From Bacteroidales bacterium (lineage in GTDB: Bacteria > Bacteroidota > Bacteroidia > Bacteroidales > GCA-2711565): 64,000 nt of DNA. The stretch is taken from contig OY760934.1 of assembly GCA_963664245.1 (NCBI GenBank), positions 2,498,210 through 2,562,209 on the forward strand. Direction: 5' to 3'. How positions within the stretch are numbered: position 1 is the first letter of the stretch; every line of letters starts with the position of its first letter. A model generated the notes under the pieces. The model was not told where the DNA came from. It saw only the letters and a list, made by a program, of their open reading frames with translations, and searched no databases. Of this stretch, positions 41,910-58,859 are shown piece by piece. A program made the position numbers and the translations under genes.

Positions 41910-42160
41910 TTTATTTCGTTCCTACGGAACTTTGTGGTTTTGTGAGTAAGGTTTTTTATAACTATTTTGCCCCTAAAGGGGCTTTTGTTTTTTATAGTAA
42001 TGATTTTCTAATTCTTTCTTGTTGTTTTATCTGCTTGTCCCGTTAGGGACAACATATTTGTAAAAACTGAAAGCAGAAAGATGAATTAGTCCCGTAGGGA
42101 CGGGATAAGGGATTGGATTATGAATGTGGCTGCAGTAAGCAAGTTTAGGAAATTAAATAT
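41910..42160. repeat. REP-hairpin cluster R1 (direct repeat of 56212-56440)
   Basis: Hairpins GTTCCTACGGAAC, GCCCCTAAAGGGGC, GTCCCGTTAGGGAC, GTCCCGTAGGGAC; colinear with the second copy over about 200 bp. Confidence 0.85.
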
Positions 42161-42186
42161 CAATGTTATTGAGCGGAGTTTTTTAA

Positions 42187-43335
42187 TTAATCTGCAGCAA
42201 TAAATCCGAATTTAGTTAGTTCGTCTCTGTTTATCCATCCAATAATAGAATCAAATCTGATCTCGTAAGTATCATCATTGTCTTCATGTTTGATTAATTT
42301 AACATTTTTATTTGGTTCAACTTTATAGATAATAAAATTTGGTATTTTATCTTTTGCAGCAGCAGAGGTTTGATAAACAATAACCGTATCAGATGGCGAA
42401 ACATATCTTACATATTGTCGTTCATCTAATGGCAGGGCTTTTAGTTTCTTGGTGATTGTGTTGTAATGGTATATTCTTGTAGACCAATCTGTCAAAAAAA
42501 AGTCAGTTCTCTCGCTTGTTGTAAATTTTAAGGTTGAGTCATTTAAGTAACAGAGCTGATCTATTGTTATAGATCGATTTAATAATTTTACAAATTCACC
42601 TTTATTATTAAATCCTAAAATAACATCTTCATCATCATCACTATATCCATATAAGTGTATGAGCATTTCATCTCCTTCTCCGCCAATATATCCTTTATCA
42701 ATGTTTTTAATTTTAATCTGATTTTCTTTCAATTGGCCTACATCAACCATTTCAATATAGCCAATAGAATTCTCAACTAAAAACTCTGGTGGAATTGTTG
42801 TACAATCAAATGTCCAAAGCATTGTTGTATCTAACAAAATAAATGCAGCATCAAAAAAATCATTTGGCCTTTCGTTTAATACTTGTGGATCCCAACCAAT
42901 GTAAAACAAAGGATATCCATTAAAATTGTATTTGTAAAGAATTTTGCGGTATTCTACTTTTCCATAGTTTTCTTCAATATGTTTTAAGGTGTCAATAGTT
43001 CGAATCATTTTTCTATCAGAAAAAGATTTAAAGGATTTATTTTCTTTATACCAGTTTTGATTTTTGAAAAACAATACAAGGTTTGTGTCTTGAAACGGGT
43101 ATCCTTTTTTTGCAAAATATTGATTGCGCGAATACCTGATAAAGCTGGAAGAAAAATACTCCAGGTCTTTGATTGCTGTTCTGCCGGTCAATGTTTCAAC
43201 GCTATCAATAAGAATTGTTTTTTCAGCTTTTTTCTCACCTTTTGATTCCGTTGAGTTTAAGGCTTGTTTCGTTTCTTGATTACATGAAACGAAAACTATA
43301 AAAACAATGAAAATAAACAGATAAAGATTTCGCAT
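42187..43335 (-). CDS. Lipoprotein with YARHG-like domain and possible C-terminal SH3-like domain
   Basis: Lipobox FVSC; RNQYFAKKGYPF...FFKNQNWY; YEIRFDSIIGWI. Confidence 0.65.
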   Translation of the reverse strand: MRNLYLFIFIVFIVFVSCNQETKQALNSTESKGEKKAEKTILIDSVETLTGRTAIKDLEYFSSSFIRYSRNQYFAKKGYPFQDTNLVLFFKNQNWYKENKSFKSFSDRKMIRTIDTLKHIEENYGKVEYRKILYKYNFNGYPLFYIGWDPQVLNERPNDFFDAAFILLDTTMLWTFDCTTIPPEFLVENSIGYIEMVDVGQLKENQIKIKNIDKGYIGGEGDEMLIHLYGYSDDDEDVILGFNNKGEFVKLLNRSITIDQLCYLNDSTLKFTTSERTDFFLTDWSTRIYHYNTITKKLKALPLDERQYVRYVSPSDTVIVYQTSAAAKDKIPNFIIYKVEPNKNVKLIKHEDNDDTYEIRFDSIIGWINRDELTKFGFIAAD

Positions 43336-43379
43336 ATAAATAATTTTTTAGCCCGTTGTTTTTATTGAATAATAAATTA

Positions 43380-44093
43380 TCAGTCACAATCGCAGGAGTA
43401 TAATTCAATACAATTATTTTTGATTGTTATTTTAATCTCCCCGGTAGCTCCTGTTCCTGTGAATGTATACGTCTGATTTTTCAGTCCTTTTAATTTGGGT
43501 GTTTCATATTCAATGCCCATGATTGTATCAAGAACAAAAGTGTGGCGGGCTATCATGATGTGAAAAACCTCATTAAAAGATAATTCCTTGAAAATATGCA
43601 AATGATTAAAACAACCATCATTCTGGGTGTAAATGTATTCCCCTCTTTCGTATAAAGTTATTTCATCTTGTACAACAATTTTCTTTCCTTCAGTTTTAAT
43701 GGTTCTTTCAACTTTTTTGAATCCAATCCTTTTTCCAAACAAGACAAAATAATTTAAATCATAACCATCGAATTTGTTTTTTAATAAGCAATTATATTTT
43801 GAGCAATCTCCACTAAAAACAAACCCAACATTTCCATTATATCTAACTTTTTGCCAATGGCCTTTTAAGACTACCCCTGAAATAGTTTTAGAAACCTTAT
43901 CTTCCATACGGTTTTCTAAAAGTAAAAGAACCGAATTTAATTTAGGATTATCAAGTATTTTTGAATCAAAAAAAGGTTTCTCAAATAATTCCGTTCCATT
44001 GTAATTTAAAACATAAATCGAATCAGAATTTAATTGAGAAAATGAAATAAGAGGCAGAAGAAACAATAAAAAAAAGCCAATAAATTTTTTCAT
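43380..44093 (-). CDS. Exported protein with SH3b-like domain
   Basis: Signal peptide; GHWQKVRYNGNVGFVFSG. Confidence 0.6.
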   Translation of the reverse strand: MKKFIGFFLLFLLPLISFSQLNSDSIYVLNYNGTELFEKPFFDSKILDNPKLNSVLLLLENRMEDKVSKTISGVVLKGHWQKVRYNGNVGFVFSGDCSKYNCLLKNKFDGYDLNYFVLFGKRIGFKKVERTIKTEGKKIVVQDEITLYERGEYIYTQNDGCFNHLHIFKELSFNEVFHIMIARHTFVLDTIMGIEYETPKLKGLKNQTYTFTGTGATGEIKITIKNNCIELYSCDCD

Positions 44094-44106
44094 AAAATCA
44101 ATTTTT

Positions 44107-44244
44107 GATTTGTCCCGGGGAGAAAAACAAATCCGTTTTTGAATTAGGGTAAATGTATTAAAAATTCTTAATTAGACAATGTAACGAATTAACGATATAA
44201 TAATTTTTGATTTACTGCTTGCTGCCACTGCTACTGCCAACTTT
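44107..44244 (-). repeat. Promoter-like box + leader hairpin, copy B (L1; direct repeat of 57653-57786)
   Basis: GATTTGTCCCGGGGAGAAAAACAAATCCGT...GGTAAAT...ATGTAACGAATTAACGATATAATAATTTTTGATTTACTG...CTGCCAACTTT. Confidence 0.85.
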
Positions 44245-44321
44245 TTAAAGTCAGTATATCTAAAATGATTCAAAATTAGGTCTTTGGTAGGTCCGGGAGG
44301 TGATTGGATAAAATTATTTTT

Positions 44322-44329
44322 TAAGTTTG
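44322..44329 (+). promoter_or_regulatory. Bacteroidota -7 box upstream of aprB
   Basis: TAAGTTTG, 54 nt before the aprB ATG. Confidence 0.5.
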
Positions 44330-44383
44330 TGCAAATTATAATGAATTGGATTATAATTCTTAATCAAATAAAAAACCTAGATT

Positions 44384-44818
44384 ATGCCAAGTTTTGTGAT
44401 TAATGAAAAGTGCGATGGTTGTAAAGCTCAGGATCGCACCGCCTGCCAGTATATTTGTCCGAACGATTTAATGGTGCTGGATAAAGAAAAAAACAAAGCC
44501 TATAACCGTGCCGTGGATATGTGCTGGGAATGTTATAGTTGTGTAAAAATTTGTCCGACCCAGGCCATTGAGATCAGGGGGTATGCCGATTTTATGCCCC
44601 TGGGAGCTACGGTTCAACCCATGCGAAGCACCGATGCCATCATGTGGTCGGTTCGTTTCCGTAATAAAAAAATCAAACGGTTTAAGTTCCCCATCCGTAC
44701 AACCGAAGAAGGAAGCATCCAGCCTGATGCCGGATTCTCTACCGGAACCGATGATTTGCACGATCCGCACCTGAGAACCGAACCCGATTCTATCGGAACC
44801 GATTTGTACAAAAAATAA
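44384..44818 (+). CDS. aprB: Adenylylsulfate (APS) reductase beta subunit
   Basis: MPSFV...CDGCKAQDRTACQYICPNDLM, CWECYSCVKICP, RGYADF, FKFPIRTT. Confidence 0.96.
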   Translation: MPSFVINEKCDGCKAQDRTACQYICPNDLMVLDKEKNKAYNRAVDMCWECYSCVKICPTQAIEIRGYADFMPLGATVQPMRSTDAIMWSVRFRNKKIKRFKFPIRTTEEGSIQPDAGFSTGTDDLHDPHLRTEPDSIGTDLYKK

Positions 44819-44840
44819 ATCCTCATTAAAACCTCTTGAC

Positions 44841-46727
44841 ATGAATATCGATAATTTTGAAACCATACAGATAGAAACCGATTTGTTAATCTTAGGCGGT
44901 GGCATGGCTGCCTGCGGGGCTGCTTTTGAGGCATCGCATTGGGCCAAAAAACACAATATGAAAGTCACGGTTGTGGATAAGGCTTCATTGGAAAGAAGTG
45001 GTGCCGTTGCCATGGGGCTTTCCGCCATTAATCTTTATTTGGGATTGAAAAATGGCAAAAACACCATCGAAGATTATGTAAATTATGTGAAGACCGATTT
45101 AATGGGTATTGCCCGCGAAGACTTGGTTGCCAACATTGCCCGCCATGTGGATTCCACGGTTCACCTGTTTGAAAAATGGGGCTTGCCGATTTGGAAAGAT
45201 GAAAAAGGAAATTACGTGAATGAAGGTCGCTGGCAAATTATGATCCATGGCGAATCGTATAAAAATATTGTTTCGGAAGCCGCCAAAAACGCTCTCAAAG
45301 AATTGGACGGAAACGGTGAATATTATGAACGCATTTTTATTACCGAACCCATTATGGATGGCGACCGTTGTGTGGGAGCCGCCGGGTTTAGTGTTCGCGA
45401 AAACAAATTTTATATTTTCAAGGCAAAAGCCGTATTGGATACCATGGGTGGAGCTGTGCATGTGTTCCGTCCGCGCTCGGTGGGCGAAGGTTTGGGACGT
45501 TCGTGGTACCCGCCTTTTAATTCCGGGGCAAGTGCTTATTTTACCCTGAAAGCCGGGGCCGAGATGACCTGCCAGGAAGTGCGTTTTGTGCCGGTTCGGT
45601 TTAAAGATTCTTACGGTCCCGTAGGTGCGTGGTTCTTGTTGTTCAAATCAAAAGCCACCAATGCCAAGGGCGAAGATTATATGGAAACCCGTAAAGCCGA
45701 ACTCGAAAACTGGGCTCCTTACGGAACTGCCAAACCCACCCCCGCCAACCTTCGGAATTACCTAATGATGCAGGAAGTGGAAGAAGGCAACGGCCCGATT
45801 TACATGAAAACCGATGATGCTATCCGCGAATTGGTTGCCAACATTCCGGATGAAAAAGAAGCCAAGCGCAAATTAAAAGAACTGGAATCGGAAGCCTGGG
45901 AAGACTTTTTGGATATGACGGTGAGTCAGGCTCTGAACTGGGCGGCACACAACATCATGCCCGAAGAAACACCTTCTGAAATTGCTGCTTGCGAACCCTA
46001 CTTTATCAGCTCGCATTCGGGAGCATCCGGGGCATGGATCAGCGGTCCGAAAGATTTGGCTCCCGGTGAAAAATTCTGGGGCTATCCCAACATGACAACC
46101 ATCAAAGGATTGTTTGCGGCCGGCGATGCCAGCGGGGCATCTTCTCATAAATTCTCTTCCGGCTCTTTCACCGAAGGACGGATTGCAGCCAAATCGGCCA
46201 TTGCTTTTTGCGCCGATCATGAGGCTCCGGCAGCTACCGATACTGAAAAAATAGAGGAACTGAAGAAACGTATTTTGCAACCCCTGGCAGTTTTCGAAGA
46301 GCATAAAGATTATGCCAACGACGAGGATGTAAACCCGAATTTTATCAAGCCTAAAATGTTTATGTTCCGTCTGCAAAAAATTATGGATGAGTATGCCGGG
46401 GGAGCTTCGGTAGGATTTAAAACTTCCAAAGCTTTGCTTGAAAAAGGACTGGAATTTTTGCAATACATGAAAGAAGATTCGGAAAAACTGGCGGCTTCAA
46501 ACTTGAATGAGCTGATGCGTTGCTGGGAGAATATCCACCGCATGTGGCAGGCCGAATCGCATCTTCGCACGGTATTGTTCAGGGAAGAAACCCGCTGGCC
46601 GGGCTATTATTTCCGAACCGATCATCCGCAAATGAAGCCCGATTGGGAATGTTTTGCCAATTGTAAATGGAACCCCGAAACCAACGAGTGGGAAATGATG
46701 AAACGCGAGATCGAAAGTATGAAATAA
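44841..46727 (+). CDS. aprA: Adenylylsulfate (APS) reductase alpha subunit
   Basis: GGGMAACG, ERSGAVAMGLSAIN, WQIMIHGESYK, RFKDSYGPVGAWF, EAWEDFLDM, HKFSSGSFTEGR, FREETRWPGYY. Confidence 0.97.
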   Translation: MNIDNFETIQIETDLLILGGGMAACGAAFEASHWAKKHNMKVTVVDKASLERSGAVAMGLSAINLYLGLKNGKNTIEDYVNYVKTDLMGIAREDLVANIARHVDSTVHLFEKWGLPIWKDEKGNYVNEGRWQIMIHGESYKNIVSEAAKNALKELDGNGEYYERIFITEPIMDGDRCVGAAGFSVRENKFYIFKAKAVLDTMGGAVHVFRPRSVGEGLGRSWYPPFNSGASAYFTLKAGAEMTCQEVRFVPVRFKDSYGPVGAWFLLFKSKATNAKGEDYMETRKAELENWAPYGTAKPTPANLRNYLMMQEVEEGNGPIYMKTDDAIRELVANIPDEKEAKRKLKELESEAWEDFLDMTVSQALNWAAHNIMPEETPSEIAACEPYFISSHSGASGAWISGPKDLAPGEKFWGYPNMTTIKGLFAAGDASGASSHKFSSGSFTEGRIAAKSAIAFCADHEAPAATDTEKIEELKKRILQPLAVFEEHKDYANDEDVNPNFIKPKMFMFRLQKIMDEYAGGASVGFKTSKALLEKGLEFLQYMKEDSEKLAASNLNELMRCWENIHRMWQAESHLRTVLFREETRWPGYYFRTDHPQMKPDWECFANCKWNPETNEWEMMKREIESMK

Positions 46728-46755
46728 AGAGCATAAAAAACGGAGGCTGAGACGG

Positions 46756-46780
46756 TCCTTGAGCGGAGTCGAAGGGAGTC
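46756..46780. repeat. Single REP-like unit at the left border of the AT-rich insert
   Basis: CCTTGAGCGGAGTCGAAGGG, same family as the 39377 and 41011 elements. Confidence 0.55.
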
Positions 46781-46875
46781 AAAGCTGAAGTGTTTGAATA
46801 GTTGCAGGAGACAGTTGGCAGAAAGCAGCAAGAATTACTAAAGGGTTCTATCCATTGTGTTTTTTTTACAAAAAA

Positions 46876-46908
46876 TTTGCTATAATACAATTTTATGTAC
46901 TATATTTG
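46876..46908 (+). promoter_or_regulatory. Consensus Bacteroidota sigma-A promoter of the insert
   Basis: TTTG (46876-79), 21-nt spacer, TATATTTG (46901-08). Confidence 0.7.
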
Positions 46909-46939
46909 CATAATTGTAGTTAATTTATATGAGATTATA

Positions 46940-47173
46940 ATGAAAAATATAGATGTTAAAAGAGAAAGATTTGAAAAAGTTGCTAGTAAAAGAACACAAC
47001 TCTTATTGGATACATTTGATAAGCTTATAAAATGTTCAAATAGGAATAATTATGAATATAGTGAAGAAGATATTAAAAAGATGTTTAAAACCATCAAAGA
47101 AAAATTAAAGTATGTTGAAAATGCATATCTACAAGAGTTACAAAAAAACATAAAAAACAAATTTGAGTTTTAA
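46940..47173 (+). CDS. Small helical protein, possible regulator (start revised from 46895 to ATG 46940)
   Basis: MKNIDVKRERFEKVASKRT...LIKCSNRNNYEYSEEDIKKMF. The longer ORF start would overlap the promoter box. Confidence 0.7.
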   Translation: MKNIDVKRERFEKVASKRTQLLLDTFDKLIKCSNRNNYEYSEEDIKKMFKTIKEKLKYVENAYLQELQKNIKNKFEF

Positions 47174-47205
47174 TTTTTAATAAAAATATTATAAACAATG
47201 AACTA

Positions 47206-49029
47206 TTGTTTATGAATACAAATAATATAAATGTAAAATATGATATAAAACGAATTTTATCCAATCTTGATGAAATGGATACAGATAAGTTGAATAATGA
47301 GTTAAAATTTAAATTTAAGACTTTATCTGTAAGGAGTTATAATGCAATTTTTTATTATCTAGAAAAGGATATTTCAATAACAAATTATTTTGAGTCAATC
47401 ATTAATTACAAGAACTTTAATTTTAGAAATATAAGAAACGTAGGAAGTAAAAGTATAATAGAACTTGAGCTTTTACATGAACAAATTATTTCATTAATAT
47501 ACGAATACGATCAATTCCACTCTAAGAACGAGATCAAAGATGAAATTAAGAATCGCCCTTATTTTAATTTAGTATCATGTTTAGATAATGAAGAAATATT
47601 TTTATTGAACAAGTATTTAGAAGTTAAAATTGATAGATTAACTGCTCGCTCAAGAAATGCATTAAATGATTATCTCAATCATGAAGTAAGTTTTAAGAAT
47701 TATTATGAAAACATCATTAATAACGAAGCTTTAAGATTTTGTAAACTAAGAAATATTGGTGTAAAAACTATTAAAGAATTAGAGCTTTTACATAGTGAAA
47801 TTATTTTCTATTTATCTGACATAAAGTCAAAGAGAAATAAAAGAGAAGAATATTATAGTTTTCTTTTAGAAGATTTATTTAATCTTAGTAATGATCAAAA
47901 AATAGAATTAAAAGGATATTTATGTGAGAACAAAATACCCATTTTTAAAATTATTTGGTATATAATTGAAAACACTTCTCTATTCAACAAAACACAAAAG
48001 TTAGTTTTTAAAAATATTTTTCTATACAAAGAAGATAATCATCAATTAACACTTTCAGGAATAGGTGAAATTACCAATCTGACAAGAGAAAGAGTTCGCC
48101 AAATTCGAGTAAAATTACTAGAAAATATTTCAAACTTATTTGAATTTGTATCTTATTTCAACTATAATCATATCAATACATATAAAATTAATAAAAATCA
48201 AAATATAATTATTATTAATAATTCTACTGCACAAGAAATATGTAAAAATGAATTGGTTAATTTTTCAAGCTTGTTCTATGAAATAATATTCTCAATATTA
48301 TTAAGAAAAACTCATAAAATTATCGAAATTGAATACATAAAAAAAGCAAAATTCTCACATAATTACCTGATAAAAAGTAGTTTATTTTTTGCCTTCGATT
48401 ATAAATCATTTTTGAATGATATGTTTGATGGGCTTAACGAACGAGTAAAAAATTCCTATAAAATAAATCTGAAGGAATTTATATCATGTTATTATAATGA
48501 AATATATCAAACAGAATTTAAAGAAGTATATGCCACTGTAAAAGAAATTTTGCAAATAGAGCATAACATCATTGTCGATAGTAATGATTATATATTGATC
48601 GAAAAGAATACTCCGATATTAGCACATGAATATGTACTTAAAATTCTTCGATATTACAAAAAGCCAATGCACTACACAGAAATTTACGATGAATGTATTA
48701 AACGTGGTTACCCCGCAAAGTCGCCACTAAATGTACACGCTAATATTCAGAGAGAACCAAAAATATTTGGCTTAAAAGGACCAGGCACCTTCGGATTAAT
48801 TGAATGGGGTGAATATTATGGCTCAATAGGTGATGTAACGGAACAAATTTTGAAAGAAAGAAATAAGCCAATACGATTAAAAGATATAGTTGAAATAATA
48901 AGTAATGAATTGATTGTCTCTCAAGATTCCATTCCAAACGTACTCTTTAATTATAAACATGAAAAAAGATTTTTGAAACTTAGAAGCGGTAAAGTTGCTT
49001 TAAAGGAGTGGTATGACATTAATAAATAA
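47206..49029 (+). CDS. Multidomain protein: 2x RNAP alpha-CTD-like, sigma-70 region-4 HTH, C-terminal HARE-HTH/delta-like winged helices
   Basis: LSVRSYNAI...IRNVGSKSIIEL and LTARSRNAL...LRNIGVKTIKEL; LTLSGIGEITNLTRERVRQI; ILRYYKKPMHYTEIY and ILKERNKPIRLKDI...VALKEW. Confidence 0.8.
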   Translation: MFMNTNNINVKYDIKRILSNLDEMDTDKLNNELKFKFKTLSVRSYNAIFYYLEKDISITNYFESIINYKNFNFRNIRNVGSKSIIELELLHEQIISLIYEYDQFHSKNEIKDEIKNRPYFNLVSCLDNEEIFLLNKYLEVKIDRLTARSRNALNDYLNHEVSFKNYYENIINNEALRFCKLRNIGVKTIKELELLHSEIIFYLSDIKSKRNKREEYYSFLLEDLFNLSNDQKIELKGYLCENKIPIFKIIWYIIENTSLFNKTQKLVFKNIFLYKEDNHQLTLSGIGEITNLTRERVRQIRVKLLENISNLFEFVSYFNYNHINTYKINKNQNIIIINNSTAQEICKNELVNFSSLFYEIIFSILLRKTHKIIEIEYIKKAKFSHNYLIKSSLFFAFDYKSFLNDMFDGLNERVKNSYKINLKEFISCYYNEIYQTEFKEVYATVKEILQIEHNIIVDSNDYILIEKNTPILAHEYVLKILRYYKKPMHYTEIYDECIKRGYPAKSPLNVHANIQREPKIFGLKGPGTFGLIEWGEYYGSIGDVTEQILKERNKPIRLKDIVEIISNELIVSQDSIPNVLFNYKHEKRFLKLRSGKVALKEWYDINK

Positions 49030-49034
49030 ATCAC

Positions 49035-49694
49035 ATGAATGAAAATATAAAGTTGCGAATTGCCAAAACAAGTGAATTAGAAAGTCTTAAAAAACTCTCA
49101 ACCGAGAAACTAATTATCTGGATCATTGGCAAAAGTAGAGAGCTAAATTTAACTTTTTCTGTTGAGGAAATTGTAATAGAATCGTGGTTGATTAATCCAG
49201 AAAAACACGCTTTGCGTGGTTTTCCTCAATTTCCAGACAGTAATTCAGTTGCAAAACGTATTGGTGAGATGAAAGGTAAAAAAGGCTTGCTAAGAGGTTC
49301 AGATATGATAGGATATCATTTGACAGAAATTTCAAAAGTAATCTATCAAGATTTAGTTGAATTAATAAAACATAAAAAGGTTATAGAGAAGAAAGGTGTA
49401 AAAGCTGCAAATCGAAATATCTTTTCAATTGATGAAACTCCTTATAATAAGCTGAAAAAAACTCCTGTATACATTAAAGTAAAAGAAAAAAAATATAATG
49501 AAATTGTTGAAACAGATTTTCTCTATTTCTATGGAATAAATTGGCACTCAAAAACAAGTTTTGTACAGAGCAGGTTAAAAAATATAGATATGATAGTTGA
49601 AGAATTTTCTAAAAATGATCCAATATTATTGGAGGTACATACTATATTGAATGAGAAATTCCAGAACATTAAAAATCAATTAATCAAAAAATAA
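49035..49694 (+). CDS. Hypothetical protein, possible winged-helix N-domain
   Basis: FSVEEIVIESWLINPEKHALRGFPQFPDS...GYHLTEIS; 5-nt and 2-nt gaps to its neighbours. Confidence 0.65.
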   Translation: MNENIKLRIAKTSELESLKKLSTEKLIIWIIGKSRELNLTFSVEEIVIESWLINPEKHALRGFPQFPDSNSVAKRIGEMKGKKGLLRGSDMIGYHLTEISKVIYQDLVELIKHKKVIEKKGVKAANRNIFSIDETPYNKLKKTPVYIKVKEKKYNEIVETDFLYFYGINWHSKTSFVQSRLKNIDMIVEEFSKNDPILLEVHTILNEKFQNIKNQLIKK

Positions 49695-49696
49695 CC

Positions 49697-51484
49697 ATGA
49701 CAAATTTAGTTGAAACAATAGGTATAACAGAGGTGCCTGCTAATTTAGGTAGATTGTTAGAAAACCAATTAAAAAAATGGAAAGGTGGAAGTCATCACCC
49801 AAGAGGGATTGCAGAATATATAACAAACTCTGATGATTCATATCGTAGGTTAGACAAGTTTATAGATCAAAATATTTATGTGGAAATTCATTCAAGACGA
49901 GGCAAAATGATTGATAAATTGATTATTAAAGATTATGCCGAAGGAATGTCTTTTGATGATTTAGAGAATAGATTCTTTAGATATTTTGAAAGCTTTAGCG
50001 GTAGAGAAAAGGGAGAAAAAGTTACTAGACAGTTTGGTACTGGAGGAAAAGCATATGCTATTATGAACTTCAGAAAATGTTGGATTATATCTATACAAAA
50101 TAATAGAGAATGTAAAGCGTGGTTTGAATGGGATTATGAAAACAAAAGAATTATAAAAGGTTATAATAATGGAGGTTATAAGGATAAACCAACTCAAGAA
50201 AAAAACTCAACTATTCTCATTTTAGAAAATAGTTATAAGGTCAACCAACCTTTAGAAGATTTAGTTAAACACATAGAAAAGTTAGCCAGAATCCGTCATG
50301 TATTAAAGCAACAAAATGTTTTTGTTACTTTAAATCGAAAAGGAAAGAATAAAAAAATTGAACTGGAATATAAGCAACCACTTGAAACTGATGCAAAACG
50401 AATATGGAGATATAAGTTACCAAATAACCTTTTTAATTCTAATGAAGATTCTGATTTAGTTTTGAGATATTTTGGAAAACCTTTAAATGGAGATGATTTT
50501 ATTGATTTAACTGATGGAATTTCTAGCGTTGCAGATTTACATGTGACTAAATTTGATAATCGACCTTTTGCAAACTCATTTAATGGTTCATTATTATTAA
50601 CTAAATTGCTAGACTCTAGTGCAGTACGAGAAAACCGAAAAGGTTTAGAAGAAGATGATGATTTGACTATCGATATTGAAGAATTTATAAAGGTTTGTGT
50701 AAAGGAATCAATCAATGAAGTAGAAGAGGAACAAAGACAAATTGATAAAGAGAGAAAATTAGATGCTGCAAATAAAAAACTTAAAGAACTAAGTAAATTT
50801 TTAAGTAAGAAGGATCTTAAATTTAGGAGTGAGTTAAAAGAGTTGCGTAAAAGGTTCCAAAATATAGAAGAAGATGATGGTAATTTTGATGAGAGAAATG
50901 ATGATTCACCCTTTGTTAGTGATATTTATAGAAAGCCTATACCTGAGGACAATGAAGAAGAGTTGATAAAAGGGAAATGGGTAGATAGAAAAGGAGAAAA
51001 TGGAGGAGGGGAAAGTGATGGAGTTCAGGAATTTGTACCAGATGATGATGGTGAAGAATTTGCTGTAAAAGTAAAGAATAATAAATCAAAGAAGACAGTT
51101 TCGAAAAAACAGAAACAAGGACTAATTGTTCTAATGTCAAATGATGAAGATAATCCTGAGAGTATAAAGTTTACTGAATTTGATGATCCAGTTAGTGATC
51201 GTGATCTAGAAACAAAAGGCATAATTTGGATAAATTCTGTTCATCCTATTACTTCCAGGGCAATAGAGAAAAAAGATAAAAATCCGGCATTATTTGATGA
51301 AAATATATCAAATCTGGTATTAATGATTGTTGCACAATATTATGCACAAAAAGAAAACGAAATGCTACCTGAAGATGAAAAAGATGATAATCAAACTTTA
51401 ATGCTTTTCAGAAAATATTTCTTTGATTTACAAAGAGAAATAAGGGAAGATAAGGAGATTTCATACTTTGAAGGAGATAAATAG
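49697..51484 (+). CDS. GHKL (HSP90/MORC-like) ATPase with acidic coiled-coil C-terminal half
   Basis: IAEYITNSDDS (motif I), IKDYAEGMS (II), RQFGTGGK (III). Confidence 0.78.
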   Translation: MTNLVETIGITEVPANLGRLLENQLKKWKGGSHHPRGIAEYITNSDDSYRRLDKFIDQNIYVEIHSRRGKMIDKLIIKDYAEGMSFDDLENRFFRYFESFSGREKGEKVTRQFGTGGKAYAIMNFRKCWIISIQNNRECKAWFEWDYENKRIIKGYNNGGYKDKPTQEKNSTILILENSYKVNQPLEDLVKHIEKLARIRHVLKQQNVFVTLNRKGKNKKIELEYKQPLETDAKRIWRYKLPNNLFNSNEDSDLVLRYFGKPLNGDDFIDLTDGISSVADLHVTKFDNRPFANSFNGSLLLTKLLDSSAVRENRKGLEEDDDLTIDIEEFIKVCVKESINEVEEEQRQIDKERKLDAANKKLKELSKFLSKKDLKFRSELKELRKRFQNIEEDDGNFDERNDDSPFVSDIYRKPIPEDNEEELIKGKWVDRKGENGGGESDGVQEFVPDDDGEEFAVKVKNNKSKKTVSKKQKQGLIVLMSNDEDNPESIKFTEFDDPVSDRDLETKGIIWINSVHPITSRAIEKKDKNPALFDENISNLVLMIVAQYYAQKENEMLPEDEKDDNQTLMLFRKYFFDLQREIREDKEISYFEGDK

Positions 51485-51550
51485 AACAATGGACTTTATG
51501 TAAATGAAATTTATGCAAATTCTGACCATATTCATATTTTATGTCTTTGA
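51485..51550 (+). pseudogene. Fragment of an IS200/REP-associated (HUH) tyrosine transposase
   Basis: Manual translation NNGLYVNEIYANSDHIHILCL*, containing the DHIHIL HUH motif; REP hairpins follow. Confidence 0.55.
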
Positions 51551-51551
51551 G

Positions 51552-51607
51552 GCAGGATTTCGTTTCACTTCATCCTGCTTTATTACCTAAAGGGGCGTTG
51601 CCCCTTA
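51552..51607. repeat. Two REP-like hairpins at the right border of the insert
   Basis: GCAGGAT-TTCGTTTCACTTC-ATCCTGC and AAGGGGC-GTT-GCCCCTT. Confidence 0.6.
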
Positions 51608-51687
51608 TTGTTAGAACGAAAAGCAAAGCGGTTTTTATTATTTCATAAAACACTATTTTATAGCCTGTTTTATTAAGCTTGTTTTTT

Positions 51688-51695
51688 TATATTTG
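51688..51695 (+). promoter_or_regulatory. Bacteroidota -7 box upstream of qmoA
   Basis: TATATTTG, 60 nt before the qmoA TTG start. Confidence 0.55.
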
Positions 51696-51755
51696 CCAAG
51701 CATTGCAGTTGAGGCAATTGTTGATTTTTAAAATGGTCTGCTAAATAAAAAATTA

Positions 51756-52988
51756 TTGGGAAAGAAAAAATATAAGCCAATATTAGTCGTCGGAGGTGGA
51801 ATCAGCGGGGTAACAACCGCTGTTGAACTTGCCGAAGCCGGGAAAGAAGTTATTCTGGTAGAGCAGAAACCTTACCTTGGCGGCAATGTAATCCGGATGA
51901 ATAATTATTTCCCTAAACTTTGTCCGCCTGCCTGTGGACTGGAAATAAATTTCCGCCGAATCAAACAAAATCCGCGCATCAAATATTTTACTTCTTCAAG
52001 TGTGCTTGATGTTTCGGGAGAGAAAGGGAGTTTTTTTGTAAAGCTCAGAACCGAACCTCAATTTGTAAAAAATAATTGTACCGCTTGCGGAAAATGCGTG
52101 GAGGTTTGTCCGGAAGAACGCCCCGACGAGTTCAATTACGATCTTGCCAAAACCAAAGTTATTTATCTTCCTCACGAGATGGCCTTCCCGATGAAATACC
52201 ATATTGACGAAGCCTTTTGCAAAAAGGAAAACTGCAATAAATGTGTGGAGGTTTGTGAATACCGGGCCATTGATTTTTCTGCAAAAGAAGAAATCCAAAC
52301 CCTGGAAATTTATTCGGTTGTTTTTGCCACGGGCTGGAAAAATTATGAAGCCTCAAAAATTGAGAACCTGAATTATAATTCGTCGGCTGATATCCTCACT
52401 AATGTAGAGTTCGAACGATTGCTGGCACCCAACGGGCCGGGCAAAGGAAAACTTTTAAAACCCTCGGATCAAACAGAACCTAAAGAAATTGTATTTGTAC
52501 AATGTGCCGGTTCGCGCGACGAAAATCATTTACCGTATTGTTCTGCAGTGTGTTGTTCGGCTTCCTTGAAGCATGCATTGAATGTTTCGGAACTATTGCC
52601 GGACTGCAAGATCAAAATTTTTTACATCGATTTGCGGGTAGCCGGCCGGAATGAAGATTTTTTAAAACGAGTGGAAGCGCAGAAAAACATTGATTTAATC
52701 AAAGGAAAAGCCGGGAAAATTGAGGTGGATGCTGAAACAAAAAAGCTGATTGTTGAAGCAGAGGACATCAAGCAAGGTAAAAAAATAAAACAACAGGCCG
52801 ACCTGGTGGTATTGGCAACGGGCATTGTTCCCAATCATTTGTCAGTCGATTTGGAACTTGACAAAAACGGATTTTTAAGTATCAATCAAAAAGAAGGAAT
52901 TCGGGCTGTGTCGTGCAGCAAAAAACCCATGGATGTTTCAGCATCGGTAAAAGATGCCACGGCTGCGGCCCTAAAAGCAATTCAATAA
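51756..52988 (+). CDS. qmoA: QmoA (HdrA-like flavoprotein)
   Basis: GGGISG, KLCPPACG, CTACGKCVEVC, VQCAGSRDENHLPYCSAVCC, PMDVSASVKDATAAA; 410 aa; near aprBA. Confidence 0.92.
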   Translation: MGKKKYKPILVVGGGISGVTTAVELAEAGKEVILVEQKPYLGGNVIRMNNYFPKLCPPACGLEINFRRIKQNPRIKYFTSSSVLDVSGEKGSFFVKLRTEPQFVKNNCTACGKCVEVCPEERPDEFNYDLAKTKVIYLPHEMAFPMKYHIDEAFCKKENCNKCVEVCEYRAIDFSAKEEIQTLEIYSVVFATGWKNYEASKIENLNYNSSADILTNVEFERLLAPNGPGKGKLLKPSDQTEPKEIVFVQCAGSRDENHLPYCSAVCCSASLKHALNVSELLPDCKIKIFYIDLRVAGRNEDFLKRVEAQKNIDLIKGKAGKIEVDAETKKLIVEAEDIKQGKKIKQQADLVVLATGIVPNHLSVDLELDKNGFLSINQKEGIRAVSCSKKPMDVSASVKDATAAALKAIQ

Positions 52989-52996
52989 ATTAACGG

Positions 52997-55111
52997 ATGG
53001 TGGAAAAGAAAACAGGCATATACATTTGTTCGGGATGCGAAATCGGGAATTGCATGGATGTAGAAAAACTTTGCACCCTGGCTTCCGAAGAGTTGAAAGC
53101 AGTTGATGTACAAACCCACCCGGCTTTATGTTCGGTGGAGGGCTATGACCTCATCCTAAAAAATATTGAAGAACAAAAACTGGATGCCGCCATTATTGCG
53201 GCCTGTTCGCCACGGGTTAAAACGGAGGTGTTTGATTTCCCGGAGCATGTTTTGGTAGACCGGGTTAATTTGAGGGAGCAGGTTGCCTGGAGTTTTGAAC
53301 CCCGGGACGAAGACACGCAGATGGCTGCCGAAGATTACCTGCGGATGAGTGTGGCTAAAATTCAACACATAAAAATTCCGGAGCCTTACAAAGCCGAAAA
53401 TTGCAGCAATGAAATTTTAGTGGTGGGCGGAGGTGTCAGCGGAATCACGGCCGCATTGCAGGGAGCGAAAGCCGGTTATATGGTTCACCTGATCGAAAAA
53501 GAAAATCAGCTGGGCGGAAGGATGAACGATTTGTTTAAACTTTATCCTTCGGTGTCGCCGTTTAATGAGTTGGCTGAGCCTGGATTGGAAAGCAAACTGA
53601 ACGAGCTCAATAGCTTCGAAAATATAAAAATTTATACCTCTACAACGGTAGAAGAAATTAAGGGCGAACCCGGAAATTTTGAGGTGAAACTCAGCGAAGG
53701 AAGAACCTTAAAAGTGGGAGCCATTGTGGCTGCGATGGGATGGAAACCTTACGATGCCGCTAAATTGTCCCACCTGGGTTACGGAAAATCCGATAAGGTG
53801 GTCACTATTTTGGAATTTGAGAAAATGGTGAAAGAAAATCCTGCTCTCAAAATCCCCGAAAACATTTTGTTTATTCAGTGTGCTGGTTCGCGCGATAAAA
53901 ATCACCTGCCTTATTGCTCGGGCTATTGTTGCAGCACTTCGCTGAAACAAACTAAATATATCCGTGAGCTAAGCCCGGATTCTTCGGTATTTATTGTTTA
54001 TAAAGATATTCGAACCCCCGGCTTGAGCGAAGAATTTTATAAGGAGGTTCAAAAAGACAGCCAGGTTTTCTTTACCAAAGGCGAAATTGACGAGGTGCTT
54101 GTTGAAGAAAATAGCCTGACAGTAAAAGTTAAAGAAACCCTTTTGGGCGAAGATATTTCTTTGTCGGTAGATATGATTGTGCTGGCTACCGGAATGACCC
54201 CTGCCGGGACGGAAGATTTGAACTTGAGTTATCGTTTGGGCAAAGGTTTGCCCGAGTTGAAATATAATTTTTCGGATTCTCATTTTATTTGTTTCCCTTA
54301 CGAAACACGCCGAACCGGCATTTATGCCGCAGGTAGTTTGCGGGCTCCAATGGATATCAGTGCCTGCGAGGAAGATGCTGCCGGAGCCATGTTCAAGGCC
54401 ATCCAGTGTGTAGAAGCTACCAAAAGAGGAGAAGCTGTTCATCCGCGTTCGGGCGATCGCTCTTACCCCGAGCTGTACATGGATCGCTGTACCGATTGCA
54501 AACGCTGCACCGAAGAATGTCCTTTTGGGATGTACGATGAAACCGAAAAAGGAACGCCGCTCCCGAATCCGGCCCGTTGCCGGAGGTGTGGGATTTGCCT
54601 GGGTTCTTGCCCTGAACGGGTTATTAGTTTCTCGGATTATTCCATTGGCAGCATTTCGTCCATGATTAAGGCGGTGGAGATCCCCGATGAGTTTGAAGAA
54701 AAACCGCGCATCCTAGCGTTTGTTTGCGAGAATGATGCCTATCCGGCTCTGGATATGGCAGGAACCAAAGGCTTAAAATACAGTCCGTATATCCGGGTGA
54801 TCCCGGTGCGTTGTTTGGGTTCCATTAATAAAGTTTGGATATCCGATGCCCTGTCGTGTGGTTACGACGGCATCTTGCAAATTGGTTGTAAGCCCGGCGA
54901 CGATTACCAGTGCCACTTCATCCACGGAAGTGAATTAACAGAAACCAGAAGCGAAAACATCCGGGAAACCCTGGAAAGTATGATGCTGGAACCTGAACGC
55001 ATACAAACCGAATTTGTGGAGATCACCGATCACCAGAAAATTCCGGGGATTATTAATGATTATATTGAAACCATTGAAGATATTGGTCCGAATCCGTTTA
55101 AAGACATGTAA
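52997..55111 (+). CDS. qmoB: QmoB (HdrA-like + ferredoxin + MvhD-like domains)
   Basis: SHFICFPYETRRTGIYAAG, CTDCKRCTEECPFG, CRRCGICLGSCP, FVCENDAYPALD, PVRCLGS, GCKPGDDYQCHF. Confidence 0.95.
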   Translation: MVEKKTGIYICSGCEIGNCMDVEKLCTLASEELKAVDVQTHPALCSVEGYDLILKNIEEQKLDAAIIAACSPRVKTEVFDFPEHVLVDRVNLREQVAWSFEPRDEDTQMAAEDYLRMSVAKIQHIKIPEPYKAENCSNEILVVGGGVSGITAALQGAKAGYMVHLIEKENQLGGRMNDLFKLYPSVSPFNELAEPGLESKLNELNSFENIKIYTSTTVEEIKGEPGNFEVKLSEGRTLKVGAIVAAMGWKPYDAAKLSHLGYGKSDKVVTILEFEKMVKENPALKIPENILFIQCAGSRDKNHLPYCSGYCCSTSLKQTKYIRELSPDSSVFIVYKDIRTPGLSEEFYKEVQKDSQVFFTKGEIDEVLVEENSLTVKVKETLLGEDISLSVDMIVLATGMTPAGTEDLNLSYRLGKGLPELKYNFSDSHFICFPYETRRTGIYAAGSLRAPMDISACEEDAAGAMFKAIQCVEATKRGEAVHPRSGDRSYPELYMDRCTDCKRCTEECPFGMYDETEKGTPLPNPARCRRCGICLGSCPERVISFSDYSIGSISSMIKAVEIPDEFEEKPRILAFVCENDAYPALDMAGTKGLKYSPYIRVIPVRCLGSINKVWISDALSCGYDGILQIGCKPGDDYQCHFIHGSELTETRSENIRETLESMMLEPERIQTEFVEITDHQKIPGIINDYIETIEDIGPNPFKDM

Positions 55112-55114
55112 AAA

Positions 55115-56209
55115 ATGATAGCGATTAAACCGGACATAAAATTTAAAAAGGCGTTGATGGAAAGCAGCGGTTCGTCTTTGAGCGAATGTATGCAGTGCGG
55201 CAATTGTTCGGCGGTGTGTTCGCTGGCTCCCGAGGAGCGGCCTTTCCCGCGCAAGGAAATGATTTGGGCCGCCTGGGGGTTGAAAGATAAATTGATTGCT
55301 AATCCCGATTTGTGGCTCTGCCATCAGTGTGGCGATTGCAGCAGCTATTGTCCGCGCGATGTAAAACCCGCCGACGTGCTGGCTTCCGTGAGGCAGCAGA
55401 GTTATTTGCAGTTTGCCCGCCCGGCTTTTATGGGAAAATTGTTGAGCAAACCGGCCTGGCTTCCGGTGGCAATTTTAATTCCGGTGCTTATTATTTCGGC
55501 TATTTTGATGTTGGCCGGAACCTTTACCATTCCTGAAGGCTCGGTGAATTATTCCAAATTTTTTCCGCATGCCTGGTTAAACGGTTCGTTTTCTTTACTA
55601 ACATTTTTATCGTACGGAATTGCGGTCACGGGTTTTGTAAAGTTTTATCGCCAGATGAAATCGCATTTCCCGGGTTCCTCTAAAAAAACAAGTTTCTGGA
55701 AAAGCGTGATACAGGTTAAAATGGAAGTGTTGAGGCACTCCAAATTTGCCGATTGCAATTCTCAAAAGACACGAAGAACGGCTCACTTTCTGGTGTTTTA
55801 CGGATTTGCATTGTTGTTGCTGGTAACGCTCTATGCCATTGTTGCCGTGATTATTGGAGCCTACCCGCTGGCTTTAAGCAACCCGTTTAAAATTATTGGC
55901 AATCTTGCTTCGGTGATGCTGCTTGTTGGACTGGGGATTTTTATATACATCCGTTTGTTTGATAAGCGGGTGATTGGCAAAAGCATTTACCCCGATTGGC
56001 TGTTACTGCTTTCTTTTTTCCTGCTTACCCTTTCGGGAATTTTGGTGCAGTTTGCCCGTTTTGAAAACTGGAGCTTTGCTTACCATTTCTATTTCTTCCA
56101 TTTGCTGTGCGTATGGTTTGTGATTATTTATTTGCCCTACACCAAATTTGCCCACATGGTTTACCGCTTTATCGCCCTGACTTTTGCCAATGGGATTGGG
56201 AGGAAGTAA
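55115..56209 (+). CDS. qmoC: QmoC (2x[4Fe-4S] + membrane heme-b domain)
   Basis: CMQCGNCSAVC, PFPRKEMIWAAWG, WLCHQCGDCSSYCPR, TM helices with AHFLVFYGF, FFHL, YTKFAHMVYR. Confidence 0.95.
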   Translation: MIAIKPDIKFKKALMESSGSSLSECMQCGNCSAVCSLAPEERPFPRKEMIWAAWGLKDKLIANPDLWLCHQCGDCSSYCPRDVKPADVLASVRQQSYLQFARPAFMGKLLSKPAWLPVAILIPVLIISAILMLAGTFTIPEGSVNYSKFFPHAWLNGSFSLLTFLSYGIAVTGFVKFYRQMKSHFPGSSKKTSFWKSVIQVKMEVLRHSKFADCNSQKTRRTAHFLVFYGFALLLLVTLYAIVAVIIGAYPLALSNPFKIIGNLASVMLLVGLGIFIYIRLFDKRVIGKSIYPDWLLLLSFFLLTLSGILVQFARFENWSFAYHFYFFHLLCVWFVIIYLPYTKFAHMVYRFIALTFANGIGRK

Positions 56210-56211
56210 AG

Positions 56212-56440
56212 TTTATTTCGTTCCTACGGAATTTTGTGAGTAAGGTTTTTTATAGCTATTGCGCCCCTAAAGGGGCTTTTGTTTTTTACCGCAATGATTT
56301 TCTAAATTGTTTTTGTTCCCCGTAAGCTTGTCTCGTTAGGGAGACCATATTTGTAAAAAGTAAAAGTGGAAAGATAAAGTCCCGGAGGGATGGGATAAGG
56401 GATTAGCAAAGTATTTTCGTAAGCTTTAGCAAATAAATAT
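56212..56440. repeat. REP-hairpin cluster R2 (direct repeat of 41910-42160)
   Basis: TTTATTTCGTTCCTACGGAA...GTGAGTAAGGTTTTTTATA...GCCCCTAAAGGGGCTTTTG...CATATTTGTAAAAA...GGGATAAGGGATT shared with R1. Confidence 0.85.
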
Positions 56441-56454
56441 TACTTGTAGAGGAC

Positions 56455-57624
56455 TTATTTTTCACCCCAAAATTGCTTTGGATTATTTATAATATAAGTT
56501 TTATAAATTACTCCATTTTTGGGGTTGGTATATATTTTTACAATAGGTTCTTGGTTTATGCCGTCTAATGGTAATAGCTGGATATACTCAATTATCTTAT
56601 TTTCTTCCACAGTTTCTGAATTGTAAGTTGAATTTAGATTTGCTTCTAAACGGTATAGGTTTTTTGCCATATACTTATACAGATAGTATTCTTTTTTTTG
56701 AGATGTTTTCCTGTTCCAATTTGCTTCCGGGTTTAAAATTAGAGGGTTATCGTTTATAAGTCTTTCTCTGACTTCTTGGATTCCTAGTAATTCACCTTCT
56801 TCATTCATTACATAAGCATCAAAAGTTGGGTCTAGCCAAATCCATTTATTTAATTGATTTGAGAATGCAGTATTAATTACGTGACAGTCATTAAATTCTA
56901 ATGGCTTTGGTTTACATGTTATCATCCTTGATTTAAATCCCATTGCTAAATAACATTCATTTAGTATGGTTGCCATCATTCGACAATTAACACCTCTGTT
57001 TTCAGACAGACAAATATTTACTAAATCTAAAGCATTTTTTTGACCAGGATTATCGCTTGAGCCGTCGTGTTTTACTTTGTTGTGAACCCAATGCATAATG
57101 TTTAGCATCTGTGAAACCTCATCTCCTTGACCAGCTATTGAATCCAGATTAAATGATTTTCTGATCTTTTTGAGGTTTCTATTTTTGCTTTCTAAATATG
57201 TAAACCCAGGAATATCTCTGTCTTGGGTTTCATTAAAAAGATAAGCTTTTTTCAATGTTGTTAGATACGGTTCAAAGTATTTAATCTGAGTATATGCACT
57301 ATCGTTACGGAATAAAACAATGAAATTAAATTCAGTATTATCTGTTAATATTACGTTTAATGTGTCTTGATCTGTTTGAAAAGAAATTGTATCTCCTAAA
57401 TTGTCACTATAATATATATCAGGTTTAATTTCTGGAGAAATTAACCAACATGCTTTTTTATTGTAACTATATACTGATTTTCCATTACATTTAATGTCAA
57501 CTTTCCTTGATTTTGCTTTGATGACAGGTAATGATTGTTGTGCAAATGAAATTTCAATAAGTAATGTAAACGCAATAAATAATGTAAATTTCATAGGGTT
57601 AGGAGTTTTGTTGTTAATTTTCAT
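56455..57624 (-). CDS. Exported transglutaminase-like domain protein
   Basis: GVNCRMMAT (Cys), DCHVINT (His), WIWLDPTF (Asp) triad. Confidence 0.85.
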   Translation of the reverse strand: MKINNKTPNPMKFTLFIAFTLLIEISFAQQSLPVIKAKSRKVDIKCNGKSVYSYNKKACWLISPEIKPDIYYSDNLGDTISFQTDQDTLNVILTDNTEFNFIVLFRNDSAYTQIKYFEPYLTTLKKAYLFNETQDRDIPGFTYLESKNRNLKKIRKSFNLDSIAGQGDEVSQMLNIMHWVHNKVKHDGSSDNPGQKNALDLVNICLSENRGVNCRMMATILNECYLAMGFKSRMITCKPKPLEFNDCHVINTAFSNQLNKWIWLDPTFDAYVMNEEGELLGIQEVRERLINDNPLILNPEANWNRKTSQKKEYYLYKYMAKNLYRLEANLNSTYNSETVEENKIIEYIQLLPLDGINQEPIVKIYTNPKNGVIYKTYIINNPKQFWGEK

Positions 57625-57652
57625 GTGTTTTGAATGTTTTGTACAACCTTCC

Positions 57653-57786
57653 GATTTGTCTCAGGGGAAAAAATAAATCCGTGTTAAGTCTCGTTCAGGT
57701 AAATATAAGAAAATTTTGATTAGGCGATGTAACGAATTGACGATATAATGATTTTCGATGTACTGTTTACTGTTGCTGCCAACTTT
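57653..57786 (-). repeat. Promoter-like box + leader hairpin, copy C (L2)
   Basis: GATTTGTCTCAGGGGAAAAAATAAATCCGT...GGTAAATATAAGAAAATT...ATGTAACGAATTGACGATATAATGATTTTCGATGTACTG...CTGCCAACTTT. Confidence 0.85.
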
Positions 57787-57904
57787 CTTGCGTCTTGATA
57801 CTTGTATCTTTAAATTTTCCGGATCAAACTCAACTCATCCCGAATTTTAATGATTAAATAGTCATTTTTCCACTTCAGATTAATCAATTCATTATATTTG
57901 AGAT

Positions 57905-58759: not shown

Positions 58760-58859
58760 CATTTCATCCCTGCACTCATCCCTTAAGCCCTAAAACCTTC
58801 TTCTTATAACTTTTTTTTCCGATTCCTTATTGCTTGAAATATGTTTGCTTCAAAAAATT

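Follow-up and report, generated by a model that had tools for sequence, protein, structure and literature searches.

An aprBA-qmoABC gene set without Sat or a sulfite reductase in a Bacteroidales genome, and its putative role between sulfite and the quinone pool

We analysed a stretch of 64,000 nucleotides (hereafter the window) from the genome of a Bacteroidales bacterium (GenBank assembly GCA_963664245.1, contig OY760934.1, positions 2,498,210 to 2,562,209), in which a full aprBA-qmoABC gene set is encoded. Judged from the gene content of the genome, the encoded proteins are predicted to be a stand-alone link between adenosine 5'-phosphosulfate (APS)/sulfite and the quinone pool, accompanied by neither Sat nor a sulfite reductase. 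The genes aprB, aprA, qmoA, qmoB and qmoC are five uninterrupted, full-length open reading frames (ORFs) on the forward strand (44384-56209), in which neither the ORF listing nor the family scans disclosed a frameshift or stop. The iron-sulfur (FeS) subunit of the dissimilatory-type APS reductase, AprB (44384..44818, +; TIGR02060, 202.6 bits vs a cut-off of 135.65; PF12139 APS-reductase_C, 109 bits), has eight cysteines (10, 13, 21, 25, 47, 50, 53 and 57) in two 4Fe-4S motifs, plus the APS-reductase_C tail domain. AprA (44841..46727, +), the flavin adenine dinucleotide (FAD) subunit, reaches 880.6 bits with the equivalog model TIGR02061 (cut-off 641.75). QmoA (51756..52988, +; HdrA2-like, 347 bits; Pfam, NCBIfam) and QmoB (52997..55111, +; HdrA2-like, 430 bits) were identified as HdrA-like flavoproteins, no dedicated QmoA or QmoB model being among the families listed for either protein; QmoB bears a C-terminal MvhD/FlpD domain (PF02662 FlpD, 136.1 bits), and QmoA is 49-72% identical to QmoA from 21 Bacteroidales loci. 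QmoC (55115..56209, +), the quinone-interacting membrane subunit, matches the equivalog NF038018 (372.2 bits vs a cut-off of 300) over profile positions 1-360 of 360, and both its FeS and its membrane haem-b domains are covered by this full-length match. The earlier note on this DNA had called the module complete and intact, which stands as far as the five full-length genes and their coordinates are concerned; it had overlooked that a 5-kb insert specific to this strain separates aprA from qmoA.

AprA aligns end to end (residues 4-621, 776 bits) with AprA of Archaeoglobus fulgidus (1JNR) and at full length with that of Desulfovibrio gigas (3GYX, 634 bits), with the same FAD-domain architecture, and AprB shares the two 4Fe-4S motifs and the C-terminal tail domain with both enzymes (1JNR/2FJA and 3GYX). 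Identical residues occupy the AprA positions aligned to N74, W234, R265 and H398 of 1JNR, which we take to be catalytic/active-site residues. As far as family scores and alignments can tell, the proteins of the window are ordinary AprBA and QmoABC members and make up a genuine dissimilatory-type set, and we infer that the predicted AprBA interconverts APS and sulfite plus AMP. What sets it apart from A. fulgidus and D. gigas is the host, a Bacteroidales heterotroph with SusC/D loci and with no Sat or DsrAB. The Desulfovibrio-type aprBA-qmoABC clusters hold the same five genes in the same order, including a full-length QmoC with its membrane domain and the MvhD-like domain in QmoB, whereas the window genome has no Sat upstream and no DsrAB or two-Cys DsrC (DsrMKJOP was not searched), and its cluster is split by the insert. 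In Desulfovibrio-type sulfate reducers QmoABC binds AprAB directly, according to a section of Ramos et al. (PMC3333476).

The window sits in a single contig of 3,732,081 bp (a 3.73 Mb complete chromosome, 97.68% complete with 2.56% contamination), where its neighbours comprise obgE, a phosphoribosyltransferase gene, purE, a FecR/SusC/SusD set, glutamate dehydrogenase and peptidases; the named closest ObgE homologues are Bacteroidales/Bacteroidota metagenome-assembled genomes (MAGs), except for one row labelled Hyphomicrobiales. The claim that the module resembles such housekeeping neighbours in base composition was borne out, as aprB, aprA, qmoB and qmoC fall in the 96th-99th GC percentile of the genome's long ORFs, like obgE (99th) and purE (98th), with qmoA at the 77th. 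That an assembly chimera or binning contamination brought a foreign apr-qmo cluster into a Bacteroidales genome might be suspected from the repeats that flank the segment and from the contamination estimate; we regard it as next to impossible, given the single contig, the GC in line with adjoining core genes and the closest AprA relatives, all of them labelled Bacteroidales or Bacteroidota. A 24,331-nt Logan contig (run X1) covers positions 42000-58000 with zero differences, and may be source data and hence no independent support. Independent runs of other organisms show the same locus with the same flanks (contigs of 35 kb and 8.6 kb) which, together with the single contig, also makes misassembly at the flanking repeats, named earlier as an outcome that would undo the finding, highly improbable.

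The remainder of the genome was searched for sulfur and electron-transfer genes. Genome-wide (97.7% complete) there was no match to the Sat-type ATP sulfurylase (PF01747) or to NIR_SIR (PF01077, which covers DsrAB, AsrC and CysI; the control for the same search matched in 11/14 genomes), so that the absence of sat and dsrAB, noted before for the window, holds for the whole genome; NrfA (PF02335) and SUOX-family sulfite oxidases (PF00174) were likewise not found in it. The sole DsrC/TusE-family gene ends in ...PESCI, with the penultimate cysteine only, and is TusE-like: it lacks the second of the two C-terminal cysteines by which we assume DsrC to be recognised. It has a weak DsrE2-like neighbour. 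The genome does encode CysD (NF009214, 511 bits vs 413), a CysN-CysC fusion (NF004035, 872 bits vs 715) within a sugar-nucleotide cluster, the thioredoxin-type APS reductase CysH (TIGR02055, 268.7 bits vs 235.3) and cysteate synthase (TIGR03844, 482.9 bits vs 324.9; genome position 680402-681607). Hence, a lack of any kind of ATP sulfurylase, which the earlier note had named, along with a lack of expression, as an outcome that would refute its proposal, does not apply. The CysDN-CysH assimilatory route passes through the same intermediates (APS and sulfite), is encoded in the same genome and often neighbours apr-qmo in relatives; it differs in that CysH is an unrelated, soluble, thioredoxin-dependent enzyme and in that the route is truncated here, without a CysI/J-type sulfite reductase. 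Between cysD and cysNC lies a four-helix-bundle gene (TIGR02436/23S rRNA intervening-sequence protein; G000:C1:2246731-2247165, L001), and in three MAGs (L017:9555-9923, L019:11945-12304, L021:11976-12338) a gene of the TIGR02436 family separates aprB from aprA or aprA from qmoA, so that one small gene family recurs within sulfur operons.

As for electron outlets, DmsA (913 bits vs a cut-off of 777.7) is encoded with DmsB, and a PsrABC/PhsABC-like molybdoenzyme operon (G000:C1:1697076-1705849, L115) combines a PhsA/PsrA-like subunit (472 bits, below the cut-off) with NrfC-like and NrfD-like proteins, followed by a TsuA/YeeE-like fragment, three unknown small ORFs, the single-Cys TusE-like gene, the DsrE2-like gene and tatC. 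The operon is a candidate for thiosulfate or polysulfide respiration, with proteins for sulfur relay included; a DsrO-like match proved to be the FeS subunit of the Psr/Phs-like enzyme (DsrMKJOP was not specifically searched).

AprA has thousands of strong homologues, the best 120 of which are 83-98% identical, and those named are MAGs of Bacteroidales, Bacteroidota or Bacteroides sp. At the level of species representatives we gathered 24 loci labelled Bacteroidales or Bacteroidota with AprA at 72-89% identity (23 of the 24 at 76-89%, L040 at 72%); next in similarity (66-72%) come a Desulfofundulus, then Desulfobacterota, Zixibacteria, Acidobacteriota, Ignavibacteria and others. The AprA phylogeny that had been proposed as a check (FastTree, 80 rows) united the window and the 24 loci in one clade with SH-like support of 100, placed among sequences from sulfate-reducer-type lineages, the sister group being without resolution. 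By sequence, AprA thus belongs to a Bacteroidales-specific clade with many close MAG relatives. With the threshold for presence set at an E of 1e-100 or better, aprA was found in 24 of 401 evenly sampled genomes of the order (22 above the cut-off), in 14/148 families (~6% of the sampled species); some families have several positive members (e.g., 3/4 in f25), and in the window's genus aprA occurs in 2/13 genomes, the second being a contig-end fragment with 93% identity. The trait is as unusual for Bacteroidales as had been claimed, yet not unique. None of the 80 best AprA loci carried a Chlorobia label except for L016 (DAOVJU010000110.1), an 8.8-kb MAG contig labelled Chlorobiota that holds the closest species-representative AprA (89% identical) and falls inside the Bacteroidales clade, probably through mislabelling or misbinning.

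Gene content was counted in 24 further species genomes of the clade, with CysH and CysD sorted by match length and ORF size. Neither Sat nor NIR_SIR was found in any of these other carriers (0/24 each), and the absence of Sat and Dsr is thus a property of the lineage rather than something missing from a single assembly. Canonical dissimilatory sulfate reduction, or Dsr-based sulfur oxidation or disproportionation, of which AprBA-QmoABC is the hallmark middle part and with which the position of the AprA clade among sulfate-reducer-type lineages would agree, is consequently very improbable. No NIR_SIR (DsrAB, AsrC) and no Sat were found in a closed genome, the DsrC-family protein has no second cysteine and NrfA is missing, which together exclude canonical sulfate respiration; the options of sulfate respiration and of disproportionation through a Dsr-type sulfite reductase, both entertained in the earlier note, fall with them, and its Dsr-independent options survive. 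In a survey of 950 dsrAB genomes (PMC10591310), the passages on 'Bacteroidota' name Chlorobia and Kapabacteria only, and 'Bacteroidales' occurs 0 times in the text. L076, the sole Bacteroidetes-labelled genome with dsrAB-like genes and Sat, has a different AprA (70% identical) that groups with Ignavibacteria.

The Sat-AprBA-QmoABC module of Chlorobaculum tepidum (Chlorobia, a sister lineage in Bacteroidota) likewise combines AprBA with a complete QmoABC outside sulfate reduction. It is said, following work by Rodriguez et al. in 2011, to feed electrons from sulfite into the quinone pool. Chlorobia retain Sat next to these genes and produce the sulfite with an oxidative Dsr system; neither was found in the window genome (Sox was not searched). 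The acquisition of the C. tepidum module from a sulfate reducer is discussed in part of PMC10504309.

In the carriers a CysH-type gene was present in 22/24 and a CysD-type gene in 19/24, the latter without enrichment over the order sample (40/61; E of 1e-60 or better). Within the 61 genomes of this sample CysH exceeded its cut-off in 38, as did CysD in 38, and NIR_SIR was found in 7, from which it appears that sulfite is commonly made but not reduced in the order, its fate being mostly unexplained. Cysteate synthase was considered as a general sulfite sink and dismissed: it occurs in 4/24 aprA carriers and in 12/61 genomes of the order (9/13 in the window's genus, 3/48 in other families), and accounts for sulfite use in that genus and a few others only. 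A link between apr and thiosulfate/polysulfide reductases was similarly set aside, as the PhsA-like enzyme showed a modest enrichment only (12/24 aprA-positive genomes vs 10/48 in other families), with all matches below the PhsA cut-off.

The qmo genes lie beside aprA in 21/24 Bacteroidales loci. In 8/24 loci cysH is found within ~5 kb of apr-qmo: in L028 it immediately precedes aprB in the same orientation, and in G036 aprA follows it at a distance of ~2.3 kb (the locus map of L029 does not show aprB). In six loci of one subclade a CLC channel with CBS domains precedes aprB; the remaining neighbours are housekeeping or unrelated genes (purA, relA/spoT, nhaA, mnmA, rho, murC-like, amgK/murU-like and siaC). 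Two MAG loci look eroded, one (L030, 201-3923) having aprB, aprA and qmoA with no qmoB or qmoC after them and the other (L031, 13100-15125) a qmoB divided into ORFs of 298 and 375 aa, which may be either real decay or MAG errors.

The window strain departs from this arrangement by a low-GC insert (46728..51771, +, 5,044 bp) that puts 5,028 nt between aprA and qmoA, compared with a gap of <=540 nt in all 21 Bacteroidales loci holding both genes (the remaining 3/24 loci end before qmoA). It comprises four ORFs on the + strand: a small one (46895-47173, from the ORF listing), a multi-helix-turn-helix (HTH) protein of 607 aa (47206-49029; Sigma70_r4 and HARE-HTH in Pfam), a 219-aa protein of no family (49035-49694) and a MORC-like GHKL ATPase of 595 aa (49697-51484; HATPase_c_3). 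Three of the four have 24-30% GC (0-3rd percentile of the genome's long ORFs). PADLOC matched none of the four, protein-atlas look-ups returned only HATPase_c_3 and Sigma70_r4/RNAP-alpha-CTD look-alike clusters, and the 80 fetched apr loci held no homologues. Contigs free of the insert, of ~95-96% nucleotide identity, were recovered from runs X10 and X7 (two other organisms), with joints at 46727->51772 (X10; 58 other nt between) or at 46814->51784; run X4 contains the insert form as well as the joined form, which suggests a recent event. The insert is specific to the window strain, and may be a mobile or defence-like low-GC cassette of three to four genes. An insert-like module of 66-73% nucleotide identity was seen at a different place in the congener G004 (L103, C34 ~54568-58869), which has no aprA.

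The insert separates qmoABC from aprBA, and transcription of qmoABC must therefore come from within or through it. Its right edge falls within the first codons of qmoA, where only a TTG start is available (among eight relatives the printed QmoA starts are 5 ATG, 2 TTG and 1 GTG), and two terminator-like hairpins with T-runs were read by eye at 51551-51607, inside the insert and upstream of qmoA. Such features, along with the lack of the insert in the ~95-96%-identical contigs (X7, X10) and in all 21 loci with both aprA and qmoA, and with the two eroded-looking MAG loci, would fit a decaying or silenced remnant, the insert having cut the link between aprBA and qmoABC and supplied a new qmoA start, so that the set would have ceased to work in this strain irrespective of what it does in relatives. 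We nevertheless hold a remnant to be unlikely, considering that none of the five ORFs is truncated or broken by a frameshift or stop, and that the presence of both forms in run X4 suggests a recent event. After the hairpins, ~60 nt before the qmoA start, a TAnnTTTG motif was also read by eye inside the insert; it presumably corresponds to the Bacteroidetes -7 promoter consensus and could be a candidate driver of qmoABC. A closed genome and near-identical strains with and without the insert offer a natural comparison of the split and the intact operon.

With the canonical pathways set aside, we tentatively favour, at somewhat less than even chances, a module that runs in the sulfite-oxidising direction, and rank it above the reduction of APS for biosynthesis. 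The earlier note held that the direction cannot be read from sequence alone, and we agree that our choice is a matter of inference which sequence cannot settle. In the proposed scheme, cytoplasmic FAD/FeS AprBA would be wired to the menaquinone pool by the QmoABC membrane complex: sulfite and AMP would be converted to APS and two electrons at AprBA, and the electrons would travel through QmoA/B and the haems of QmoC to menaquinone and on to anaerobic reductases (DmsAB-type and PsrABC/PhsABC-like enzymes are encoded). The APS would be removed by the only enzymes present for it, either CysD/CysN in reverse or the CysC kinase domain. The cell would benefit by detoxifying sulfite and by gaining a little energy where its habitat is sulfidic and anoxic.

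This direction is favoured because sulfite made by AprBA would have no sink in most carriers: since cysteate synthase occurs in 4/24 of them only, AprBA is in most the only recognisable sulfite-consuming enzyme. It is further favoured because the genes are strongly conserved and core-like in composition, unlike what would be expected of a CysH duplicate; signs of selection on the module are seen in AprA, which stays 76-89% identical in 23/24 species, in the retention of Qmo beside aprA in 21/24 loci, and in the spread of aprA over 14/148 families, some of them with several positive members. Menaquinol (-75 mV) alone, according to a passage in PMC3333476, cannot reduce APS (-60 mV) against the membrane potential; no co-donor is required when the electrons flow the other way, which likewise favours sulfite consumption. 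Possible sulfite sources or electron outlets in the genome are DmsAB, the Psr/Phs-like enzyme and the adjoining TsuA/YeeE-like, TusE-like and DsrE2-like genes.

Several observations weigh against sulfite oxidation. No sulfite source was identified in the genome: Xsc (TIGR03457) gave a best match of 297.7 bits, below the cut-off of 676.4, and the genome encodes a single PFL-like glycyl-radical enzyme, on account of which organosulfonate desulfonation was rejected as a source (SuyAB, CuyA and TauD were not searched). The PhsA-like enzyme stays below its equivalog cut-off and is found in only 12/24 aprA-positive genomes, against 10/48 in other families. The window genome has a sulfite sink in its cysteate synthase, the AprA clade lies among sulfate-reducer-type lineages, and the insert and TTG start may impair Qmo in the window strain. 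CysH, retained in 22/24 carriers and near apr-qmo in 8/24 loci, is a better fit to co-regulated APS reduction, and its operation alongside sulfite oxidation would make a futile cycle. All characterised Apr systems that oxidise sulfite are, to our knowledge, accompanied by Sat or APAT, and we know of nothing that establishes the reversal of CysDN in vivo.

A reductive, biosynthetic use is in our view possible, though less probable than sulfite oxidation. APS made by CysDN would here be reduced to sulfite by AprBA-Qmo, with menaquinol and a low-potential co-donor, as a quinone-linked alternative to CysH, and the sulfite would be used as such (in the window's genus by cysteate synthase, for sulfonolipids) instead of being reduced to sulfide. 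A complete route is encoded in the genome (CysD, CysN-CysC, CysH and cysteate synthase), cysH lies near apr-qmo in 8/24 loci and in G036, and CysH without a sulfite reductase is normal for the order (38/61 vs 7/61), which suggests that these bacteria have a use for sulfite itself. Sulfonolipid synthesis in Bacteroidota begins with cysteate synthase (PMC11211663). An assimilatory precedent for an AprA-like enzyme exists in Methanothermococcus thermolithotrophicus, whose 3'-phosphoadenosine 5'-phosphosulfate (PAPS) reductase (8A8O) shows the dissimilatory-type fold in a non-respiratory route of a methanogen; it is far more distant from the window protein than 1JNR is (331 vs 776 bits), the latter protein being by score a true AprA equivalog, and one that comes with QmoABC. 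The biosynthetic reading also has to explain why five strongly conserved genes, seemingly much for a duplicate step, should duplicate CysH, which 22/24 carriers keep. CysD is no commoner in carriers (19/24) than in the order sample (40/61), and cysteate synthase is present in 4/24 carriers only and, within the genus, in 9/13 genomes, yet aprA in 2/13. Furthermore, APS reduction could not be driven by menaquinol alone (again following a passage in PMC3333476).

The co-occurrence of CysH and AprBA (22/24 carriers, neighbours in 8/24 loci) could also be taken to indicate an APS/sulfite shuttle, in which CysH would reduce APS with thioredoxin and AprBA-Qmo would re-oxidise the sulfite, conveying electrons from NADPH/thioredoxin to the quinone pool without any need for Sat, a sulfite reductase or a bulk sulfite source. 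The overall reaction is exergonic by ~200 mV (textbook potentials). Such a shuttle has no precedent and serves no obvious physiological need; the co-occurrence is largely background, CysH being common in the order regardless of AprA (38/61), and the adjacency of cysH may reflect an ancestral insertion site beside a conserved cysH-nhaA block. We therefore deem it highly unlikely and retain sulfite oxidation as the preferred direction.

In its broadest form, our proposal is that the Bacteroidales clade uses AprBA-QmoABC as a self-sufficient sulfite:menaquinone (or APS:menaquinol) oxidoreductase without Sat or Dsr, a third mode beside sulfate respiration and Dsr-based oxidation; we put it forward as a speculative possibility. 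If true, fermentative polysaccharide degraders in sulfidic habitats would use sulfite as a respiratory donor, CysDN then acting as an ATP sulfurylase in reverse, or would run a CysH-linked APS/sulfite shuttle. New here are the metabolic context, an AprA clade confined to Bacteroidales and, in the window strain, the splitting of the cluster by a putatively mobile low-GC module; no description of Bacteroidales AprBA-Qmo without Sat and Dsr was found in the literature consulted, and the gene tables of PMC9040765, PMC10504309 and PMC7887784 may list such MAGs uncommented. As aprA is a standard marker in environmental surveys for sulfate reducers and sulfur oxidisers, its Bacteroidales carriers would be misread as either guild. 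The module suggests that abundant heterotrophs in anoxic sediments, springs and stratified lakes exploit the APS/sulfite couple in a way not yet described, and the order-wide occurrence of CysH without a sulfite reductase raises a second question, namely the use of sulfite in Bacteroidales.

The 14.3-kb segment that holds aprBA, the insert, qmoABC and two low-GC accessory ORFs is bracketed by direct repeats of ~205 bp (left copy 41910..42114, made of short hairpin units of families D8, D1, D4 and D9; right copy 56212..56404, directly after the qmoC stop codon; neither assigned to a strand), which are 85-96% identical, lie ~14,294 bp apart and are also visible as a backward joint in the contig comparison. 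The accessory ORFs, between the left repeat and aprB, encode a YARHG-domain protein (42187-43335, -; Pfam) and a 237-aa protein of no assigned function (43380-44093, -); their GC is 29-30% (3rd-4th percentile), and run X10 has 871 other letters in place of 42187..44093. An empty insertion site could not be defined by synteny, as purE and the downstream genes lie >1 Mb apart in five congeners (64-81% identity). The short GC-rich hairpin clusters (41910-42114, 56212-56404 and also 41186-41218) resemble repetitive extragenic palindromic (REP) elements, and the unit at 41186-41218 has dozens of copies, often as inverted pairs, in the congener G009 and few in G003, G007 and G011. Lastly, a 76-nt direct repeat (79% identical) occurs upstream of aprB (44156-44231) and upstream of a LytTR-domain gene at 57905 (57704-57779), and could be a shared regulatory or repeat element.

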